Positions 1-353 of a DNA stretch of 353 nt are shown here, piece after piece. Made by a program: the position numbers. Every line of letters begins with the position of its first letter. The stretch's first letter is position 1. Location of the stretch: NCBI RefSeq assembly GCF_003334385.1, contig NZ_QOWN01000194.1. One strand, 5' to 3'. Source of the stretch: Escherichia coli. GTDB taxonomy: Bacteria; Pseudomonadota; Gammaproteobacteria; Enterobacterales; Enterobacteriaceae.

Positions 1-353
1 TGGTCACCCACGTACTGGGAGACAATCACCGGCAGCCCCTGGAAGGAGCCACCCAGCAGGGTCATGTCCGGGTATTCTTTCTGACCCAGCGCATTTTTAC
101 GCATGGACAGCGCCAGGGCATTGGTGCTGGACATCAGCCAGACAGCACCAGTGGGCTGCAGGTTTGCTGCCACAAACTGTCCAAACGCCGCCTCTGCATC
201 CGCATCCGGGTTACCGCTTGATGCCGTGCCCTTCACATCATGGGTGATGGACGCCGGGGAGACATCTGCCACCGCCGCTTTTTTCGGGTCCACAAAGTCT
301 GTATCCAGACGCGCCACCACCGCTTCCGCCAGCGCATTACGGACCAGTGCATC

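Follow-up and report, generated by a model that had tools for sequence, protein, structure and literature searches.

The closest described counterpart of the feature analysed here lies in the capsid protein gp5 of phage HK97. After the G-loop, the A-domain of gp5 has, at about residues 241-266, a loop (TAYDTSLNATGD) followed by a helix, 'alpha5' (TRADIIAHAIYQVT); residues are numbered as in the translation of gp5, which is consistent with D231 lying in the G-loop. HK97 gp4 and gp5 are separate proteins, and the HK97 genes run in the order terS, terL, portal, protease, capsid. The cross-link triad of HK97 is not required for membership in the HK97 fold family. The A-domain may also hold far larger elements, as in the coat protein of phage P22, where the I-domain is a large insertion in the HK97-fold A-domain. 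For actinobacteriophage HK97-fold capsids, the passages bearing on the A-domain describe loops A1-A4 that vary in length, and a conserved charged residue engaged in a salt bridge in some A-domain loops (Podgorski et al., bioRxiv 10.1101/2022.09.09.507160).

We investigated a 353-nt stretch of Escherichia coli DNA, referred to as the window. A first-pass annotation had proposed that minus-strand codons 40-56 of this window form a small-residue-rich, acidic and possibly variable loop of a phage capsid protein, and that a repeated hexamer within them may reflect a duplication. Our analysis makes it likely that the segment is an ordinary loop and helix start of the HK97-fold capsid protein of Stx-type prophages, which explains its composition; the repeat in it is coincidental.

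A protease-scaffold-capsid fusion gene of Stx-type prophages

The only frame open from end to end of the window is minus-strand frame 1, with 117 codons. The window matches the chromosomes of E. coli 2012EL-2448 and STEC2018-553 with 100% identity, and in 2012EL-2448 it falls within a CDS of 1,938 nt (WP_000173022.1) annotated as 'phage major capsid protein'. This lambdoid Stx-type prophage gene encodes a fusion of prohead protease, scaffold (delta) and HK97-fold major capsid protein; its 645-aa product begins with a prohead protease part, continues through a coiled-coil or scaffold-like middle and ends in an HK97-type capsid part. The flagged segment, positions 186-236 on the minus strand, corresponds to residues 481-497 of this protein.

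1-353, minus strand: residues 442-558 of the 645-aa fusion protein (identical to the 2012EL-2448 locus; profile matches)

The proposed identity as a capsid protein was borne out by the profile matches, the annotated CDS, the surrounding head module and the structural comparison with Foldseek described below. The protein belongs to the HK97-family major capsid proteins of TIGR01554 (77.3 bits against a cut-off of 27.5, residues 204-584), and it matches PF05065 (E = 1.1e-13, residues 386-635) and PHROG 617 (1e-261). Its N-terminal part matches PF04586 (Peptidase_S78; E = 5.4e-8, residues 48-152), and the score for the HK97-family prohead protease model TIGR01543, 46.5 bits, is below the cut-off of 59. 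We also considered NF045541 ('prohead protease/major capsid protein fusion protein', scaf_prot_MCP2), which was rejected because the match reached only 54 bits against a cut-off of 525 and covered residues 48-287 only; the protein has the same fusion architecture, yet it is another fusion family. Two family representatives of about 1,090 aa (P0122 and P0125), in which the protease-capsid part begins near residue 620-630, carry an extra fused N-terminal region of roughly 430 aa. An E. coli 'partial major capsid protein' (P0037) matches the family up to about residue 504 and then continues into eukaryote-type Ig domains (PF07679, PF13895 and PF13927); it is probably derived from a chimeric or contaminated contig.

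The window was found at 90% identity or more in 1,249 of 5,426 complete E. coli genomes. Capsid gene copies occur at up to seven places per E. coli genome, with 90-100% identity; these multiple copies represent paralogous lambdoid prophages in STEC strains and offer ample substrate for recombination between copies. Phage records containing the window number 92, nearly all of them from Stx-converting or related lambdoid phages, such as BP-4795, 2851, 1717 and JLK-2012. The same capsid gene is present in phages BP-4795, 2851 and 1717 and in Salmonella phage FSL SP-016, whose copy of the window is 75% identical.

In 2012EL-2448 the capsid gene is preceded by the genes for the small and large terminase subunits and followed by a 73-aa ORF, the portal gene and head-tail connector genes. 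This head-morphogenesis context (terminase, portal and head-tail connectors) is found in the annotations of 2012EL-2448, BP-4795 and SP-016. At the E. coli genome locus L001 (positions 5473-9961) the order is terS, terL, protease-capsid fusion, 73-aa ORF and portal, and the 73-aa ORF belongs to PHROG 829, of unknown function. Thus the organization differs from that of HK97 in two respects: the portal gene comes after the capsid gene, and protease, scaffold and capsid are fused in a single 645-aa polypeptide rather than divided between separate proteins.

The portal gene itself has an unusual structure. It spans positions 2943-5527 at L001, where it is annotated as a single frameshifted pseudogene, 1781-4527 in BP-4795 (L002) and 3139-5534 in Salmonella SP-016 (L007). 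BP-4795 has two ORFs in its place, of about 454 and 461 aa, which overlap, and SP-016 is similar. PHROG 2271 (859 positions) covers both halves; the second half, for which no function is known, matches it in several stretches that repeat. Since the split is kept across phages, a true two-gene arrangement or a programmed frameshift is suggested rather than decay.

Predicted structure of the segment

To place the segment in the capsid fold, we used an AlphaFold2 model of residues 285-645 built from an alignment of 101 sequences (protein numbering is model numbering plus 284; mean pLDDT 82.5, pTM 0.79). The protein has the HK97 fold, with N-arm, E-loop, P-domain with spine helix, and A-domain, as seen in the model and in Foldseek comparisons. 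Foldseek matched the Bxb1, D3 and HK97 capsids with probability 1.0, E-values of 1e-14 to 1e-10 and at most 22% identity, and the T5 and GTA capsid proteins were also matched with probability 1.0. The order of elements in the model is a spine helix (439-462), a conserved extended stretch (VSPASIT), a coil (481-489), a helix (490-503), a strand (511-515) and a second helix (517-525). The corresponding features of the window are as follows.

291-353, minus strand: C-terminal part of the putative P-domain 'spine' helix, residues 442-462 (model helix 155-178, residues 439-462; named by analogy with HK97)
210-236, minus strand: ordered connecting loop of the A-domain, V481-N489, with a short beta-bridge at T484-A485; of the two halves of the segment, the one that varies more (DSSP on the model, bridge at model residues 200-201, pLDDT about 93)
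186-209, minus strand: P490-A497 (PDADAEAA), N-terminus and first two turns of a helix (model helix 206-219, residues 490-503; pLDDT 92-94)
168-209, minus strand: whole amphipathic helix P490-A503, putative equivalent of alpha5 (model and alignment)
132-146, minus strand: A-domain beta-strand after the helix, residues 511-515 (model strand 227-231)
102-128, minus strand: second A-domain helix, residues 517-525, putative equivalent of HK97 alpha6 (model helix 233-241; hhalign pairs ALSMRKN with NIALLKD, HK97 residues 284-290, at low probability)

The segment is thus only in part the loop that had been proposed: residues 481-489 form a loop, but residues 490-497 are helical in two independent AlphaFold2 models with pLDDT above 90. 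The blocks covering 481-497 have a pLDDT of 92-94, so that the segment is predicted to be ordered. The helix has family-conserved hydrophobic positions at 494 (I/V/L), 497 (L), 498 (F/L/M), 501 (F) and 502 (I/L) among 148 family representatives. A position of loop 481-489 on the surface of the subunit is argued for by its tolerance of indels, its hydrophilic substitutions and its geometry; the available literature passages on actinobacteriophage capsids, P74-26, D3 and CBASS escape do not state a surface position for the loop preceding alpha5. The 'fusion' that the CBASS-escape study refers to in the passages available concerns other proteins and not a protease-capsid fusion.

The composition of the segment can be read against this structure. 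Codons 40-56 (window 236 to 186, minus strand) translate as VKGTASSGNPDADAEAA, and the description of the segment as small-residue-rich and acidic is accurate: 14 of its 17 residues (82%) are G, A, S, T, D, N or P, compared with a mean of 57% for 17-residue windows, and the net charge is -2. One other stretch of the same window reaches 88%. The claim of low hydropathy fared less well. The mean Kyte-Doolittle value of -0.55 is lower than the window mean of 0.08, but it ranks only 20th from the bottom among 101 sliding windows, and of the hydrophobic flanks supposed to lie on both sides only the downstream one (+0.74) fits the description, the upstream one having a value of -0.20. Loops favour Gly, Ser and Thr. 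Helices prefer Asn, Ser or Thr as the N-terminal cap, followed by Pro in position one, an acidic residue (Asp or Glu) within the first turn, where it offsets the helix dipole, and Ala. The residues N-P-D-A-D-A-E-A-A fit the helix preferences, with Asn489 as the probable N-cap and Pro490 as the probable N1 position, roles assigned from these general preferences. The small, acidic composition therefore follows from the preferences of a loop and a helix N-terminus, for which it is normal, and needs no special function.

Comparison with HK97 and other capsid proteins

Like HK97 gp5, the protein has a spine helix, a G-loop region, a short strand, a loop, an amphipathic helix, a strand and a second helix, and the spacing from the end of the helix to the next strand is equal in the two proteins. 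Most family members carry the R-x-D motif of HK97 (T-R-A-D256) where the helix starts, whereas the query clade has Asp491 in place of the Arg. From the order and spacing of the elements together with this motif, we infer that helix 490-503 corresponds to HK97 alpha5 and Asp493 to D256. The two proteins are otherwise distant. Sequence identity is about 12-14%, the glycine-rich sequence of the HK97 G-loop is absent from the query protein and the helix of the query clade is about one turn shorter. An hhalign comparison of the family profile with the single HK97 gp5 sequence gave a probability of 0.11 and covered the C-terminal third only, leaving the segment outside the alignment.

The best structural match was the Bxb1 major capsid protein (PDB 9D9X/9D9W; E = 1.4e-14, 22% identity), which has the HK97 fold and is also the only significant match to the PDB at the sequence level. 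Its distance from the query precludes aligning the segment residue by residue: in the HMMER alignment the E-loop, spine helix and C-terminal flanks pair well and residues 481-497 only loosely. PDB searches with the protein and with the 101-sequence profile gave weak matches to the Bxb1 protein and to the head protein of cf-PICI EcCI2, in which the segment was not usefully aligned. With the best PDB match at 22% identity, there is no solved structure of a close relative.

As described for loops A1-A4 in the cited passages on actinobacteriophages, the length of an A-domain loop varies here between related capsids while the core fold stays constant. The query loop appears not to be one of these named loops, since by residue counts it would lie about 15-25 residues after the G-loop and before A1, which in Adephagia follows at about 33, and the variation at the query site, unlike that described for A1-A4, amounts to only about four residues. 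The P22 I-domain and other large insertions likewise indicate an A-domain surface that tolerates insertions, but no domain-sized insertion is present at the query site, where lengths range from 18 to 30 residues in about 250 relatives.

We also compared the residues of the HK97-type isopeptide cross-link. K406 and E618 are conserved, in a register with HK97 that is set by a motif and a low-probability hhalign alignment. Pairing FVKN356...E363 of HK97 with FQTG611...E618 makes residue 611 the putative cross-link Asn, K406 the putative Lys and E618 the putative catalytic Glu. Residue 611 (L001 about 5844-5846, minus strand, outside the window) is Gly in the E. coli Stx-prophage clade and Asn in about 87% of relatives, including Salmonella proteins 83% identical to the E. 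coli Stx-prophage protein. Judged by these sequences, the E. coli Stx-prophage clade may have lost the acceptor of the chainmail cross-link.

Variability and conserved positions across the family

To examine whether the segment is variable, we used two alignments. One contained 101 near-full-length homologues with 54-99% identity. The other was an L-INS-i alignment of 148 of the top 150 representatives, 37-60% identical to the query, from an exhaustive profile search that returned 9,532 representatives (50% identity) at E <= 1e-3; lengths of 640-670 aa for most of the top 150 indicate that these are protease-capsid fusions as well. Mean column entropy of the segment was 1.87 bits compared with 1.20 for the domain in the first alignment (rank 22 of 345 windows of 17 residues) and 2.16 compared with 1.75 for the fold core in the second (rank 34 of 274). 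The segment is thus in roughly the top 6-12% of 17-residue windows for variability among about 250 relatives. The most variable 17-residue stretch is formed by the neighbouring residues 495-511 (window 144-194), which take in the remainder of the helix and the loop after it, NLQPTGA.

Two positions within the segment are nearly fixed, and a third feature is shared by a single clade.

213-215, minus strand: codon of Gly488, near-invariant (G in 139 of 148 representatives, 94%; near-invariant also in the 101-sequence alignment)
198-200, minus strand: codon of Asp493, the Asp of the R-x-D motif (invariant in 101 sequences; D in 142 of 148 representatives, 96%)
204-212, minus strand: site of a putative lineage-specific deletion of four residues, at N489/P490/D491 (extra residues in relatives)

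That Asp493 hardly varies suggests that it makes a specific contact. At the position of Asp491, most of the 148 representatives have Arg. As to length, an extra 4-5 residues are present between N489 and P490 in 77% of the 101 homologues, and extra residues are present just after P490 in 97% of the 148 representatives. T478 and F498 are 23 residues apart in 119 of the 148 representatives and 19 apart in the query and five others, with an overall range of 18-30; all relatives at least 72% identical to the query have the short form. None of the approximately 250 relatives has a domain-sized insertion in the segment. Indels are more common at this site than anywhere else in the capsid domain, and they reflect essentially one event of four residues, with 80% of representatives at one length. 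The capsid domain has only two major indel sites, after P490 and after V556 (codon 115, window 9-11); at the latter, 93% of representatives have extra residues relative to the query clade.

Because the long form is in the overwhelming majority and resembles HK97, we infer that the ancestor of the enterobacterial clade lost four residues by deletion. In the AlphaFold2 model of a long-form relative (P0126, pLDDT 91.7) the loop has the same length and the helix has 17 residues compared with 14 in the query, so that the difference corresponds to approximately one N-terminal helix turn and one loop residue. Overall, these results support a segment that is more variable than the domain average and holds its commonest indel site, but not a hypervariable one: residues 495-511 vary more, and Gly488 and Asp493 have hardly changed.

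Variation among close relatives

Among six E. coli phage copies there are 32 variable sites in the 353 nt, five of them in the 51-nt segment compared with 4.6 expected. The variation is mostly synonymous. Only three codons of the window change an amino acid among these copies, one of which is in the segment (S487T); T484M occurs in one protein cluster. A different pattern was seen in the comparison with Salmonella SP-016, where substitutions affect 8 of the 17 residues of the segment and 14 of the other 100 residues of the window (Fisher p = 0.004), and six of the eight differences fall in the loop half (codons 40-44 and 46). The expected divergence between related phages is therefore found at the level of genera, but among E. 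coli phage copies the segment changes at the background rate, with one conservative S/T replacement. Relaxed constraint on a surface loop would fit this faster divergence of the loop between genera.

The GCATCC-GCATCC hexamer

The tandem hexamer reported in the segment is present at positions 196-207, where the coding strand reads g-GAT-GCG-GAT-gc and overlaps the codons of D-A-D-A.

196-207, plus strand: two tandem copies of the hexamer GCATCC, a coincidental by-product of the codons GAT-GCG-GAT-GCA

At least one exact tandem of two 6-mers occurred in 7% of mononucleotide shuffles and in 20% of codon-order shuffles of the window, and Tandem Repeats Finder reported nothing in the window. When synthetic one-copy and three-copy queries were searched against 5,426 complete E. 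coli genomes (approximately 2,921 places), no such allele was detected; the best matches were the two-copy form with a 6-nt gap, at 96.3-96.4% identity. The DNA of the segment has the same length in all seven phage DNAs aligned, and at the same place and length SP-016 has GGATGACGACGC (D-D-D-A), which is not repeated. Further evidence comes from the protein alignment. Since D493 is invariant in the family and D491 is Arg in most relatives, the two D-A pairs do not have a common origin. The suggestion of a small codon-level duplication is contradicted by the absence of copy-number alleles, by the repeat-free SP-016 sequence of equal length and by the net change in the clade, a probable deletion of four codons and not a gain. 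Two adjoining Asp-Ala codon pairs produce the hexamer repeat by chance.

Discussion

We have found that the flagged segment belongs to a fusion capsid protein of Stx-type prophages and consists of a loop and the beginning of a helix. Secondary structure, the pattern of conservation and indels, and the lack of repeat polymorphism agree with its being, in all likelihood, an ordinary part of the HK97-fold capsid. V481-N489 would form an ordered A-domain loop leading from the conserved SPASIT after the spine helix into the helix, and P490-A497 would supply the first two turns, with a capped N-terminus, of an amphipathic helix in the A-domain that corresponds to HK97 alpha5. Gly488 and Asp493 would act as conserved anchors while the remaining positions drift, and the loss of four residues in the ancestor of the enterobacterial clade would have removed about one helical turn and one loop residue.

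Several other explanations were weighed. An exposed hypervariable surface loop, under diversifying selection by host defences, antibodies or a decoration protein, would account for the above-average entropy, the main indel site of the domain, the concentration of SP-016 substitutions in the segment and the hydrophilic, small residues. We nonetheless consider it unlikely that the whole segment is of this kind: half of it is confidently predicted to be helical, Gly488 and Asp493 barely vary, lengths stay within 18-30 residues, mostly at a single value and without domain insertions, the neighbouring residues 495-511 vary most, and the E. coli copies differ at background level, mostly by synonymous changes. 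A recent 6-nt (two-codon) tandem duplication by replication slippage, which would make D-A-D-A a small length-variable hotspot, draws on the exact tandem at 196-207. Such repeats arise by chance in 7-20% of shuffled windows and this one escapes Tandem Repeats Finder; alleles with one or three copies are absent from the E. coli genomes searched, the seven phage DNAs are equal in length with a non-repeated SP-016, the two aspartates differ in history and the query clade is shorter than the family norm at this site. An origin by duplication is accordingly very improbable.

An element acting at the level of DNA or RNA, such as a small ORF on the plus strand, a regulatory hairpin or a small RNA, has in its favour a 27-codon plus-strand ORF (164-247) and a 23-codon minus-strand ORF in another frame, both overlapping the segment. 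We give this reading almost no credence, given that minus-strand frame 1 is open throughout as part of a conserved gene for a 645-aa protein, whose E. coli copies differ mostly by synonymous changes, that no Rfam match was found at E <= 1, and that inverted repeats are short and imperfect, none being centred on the segment. A search of the window for direct and inverted repeats returned only short chance matches and no notable DNA structure. More speculatively, the loop and helix N-terminus might make up part of the capsomer's outer face and serve as a lineage-specific recognition surface, for example for a decoration protein encoded by the 73-aa ORF or for a host defence system that senses capsids, with the one-turn deletion and the change from Asn to Gly at residue 611 marking a switch in how Stx-type heads are stabilised. 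We regard this scenario as a long shot.

Overall, the ordinary loop and helix start preferred here is a real feature of an already well-known protein family, and the significance of the finding is small: the window is assigned to a well-known gene family, and the composition that had been flagged is normal. The four-residue deletion is a clean marker for the enterobacterial clade of this capsid family. Since loop 481-487 tolerates substitution, peptides or tags could plausibly be displayed there on these capsids, and in capsid engineering Gly488 and Asp493 should be left intact.
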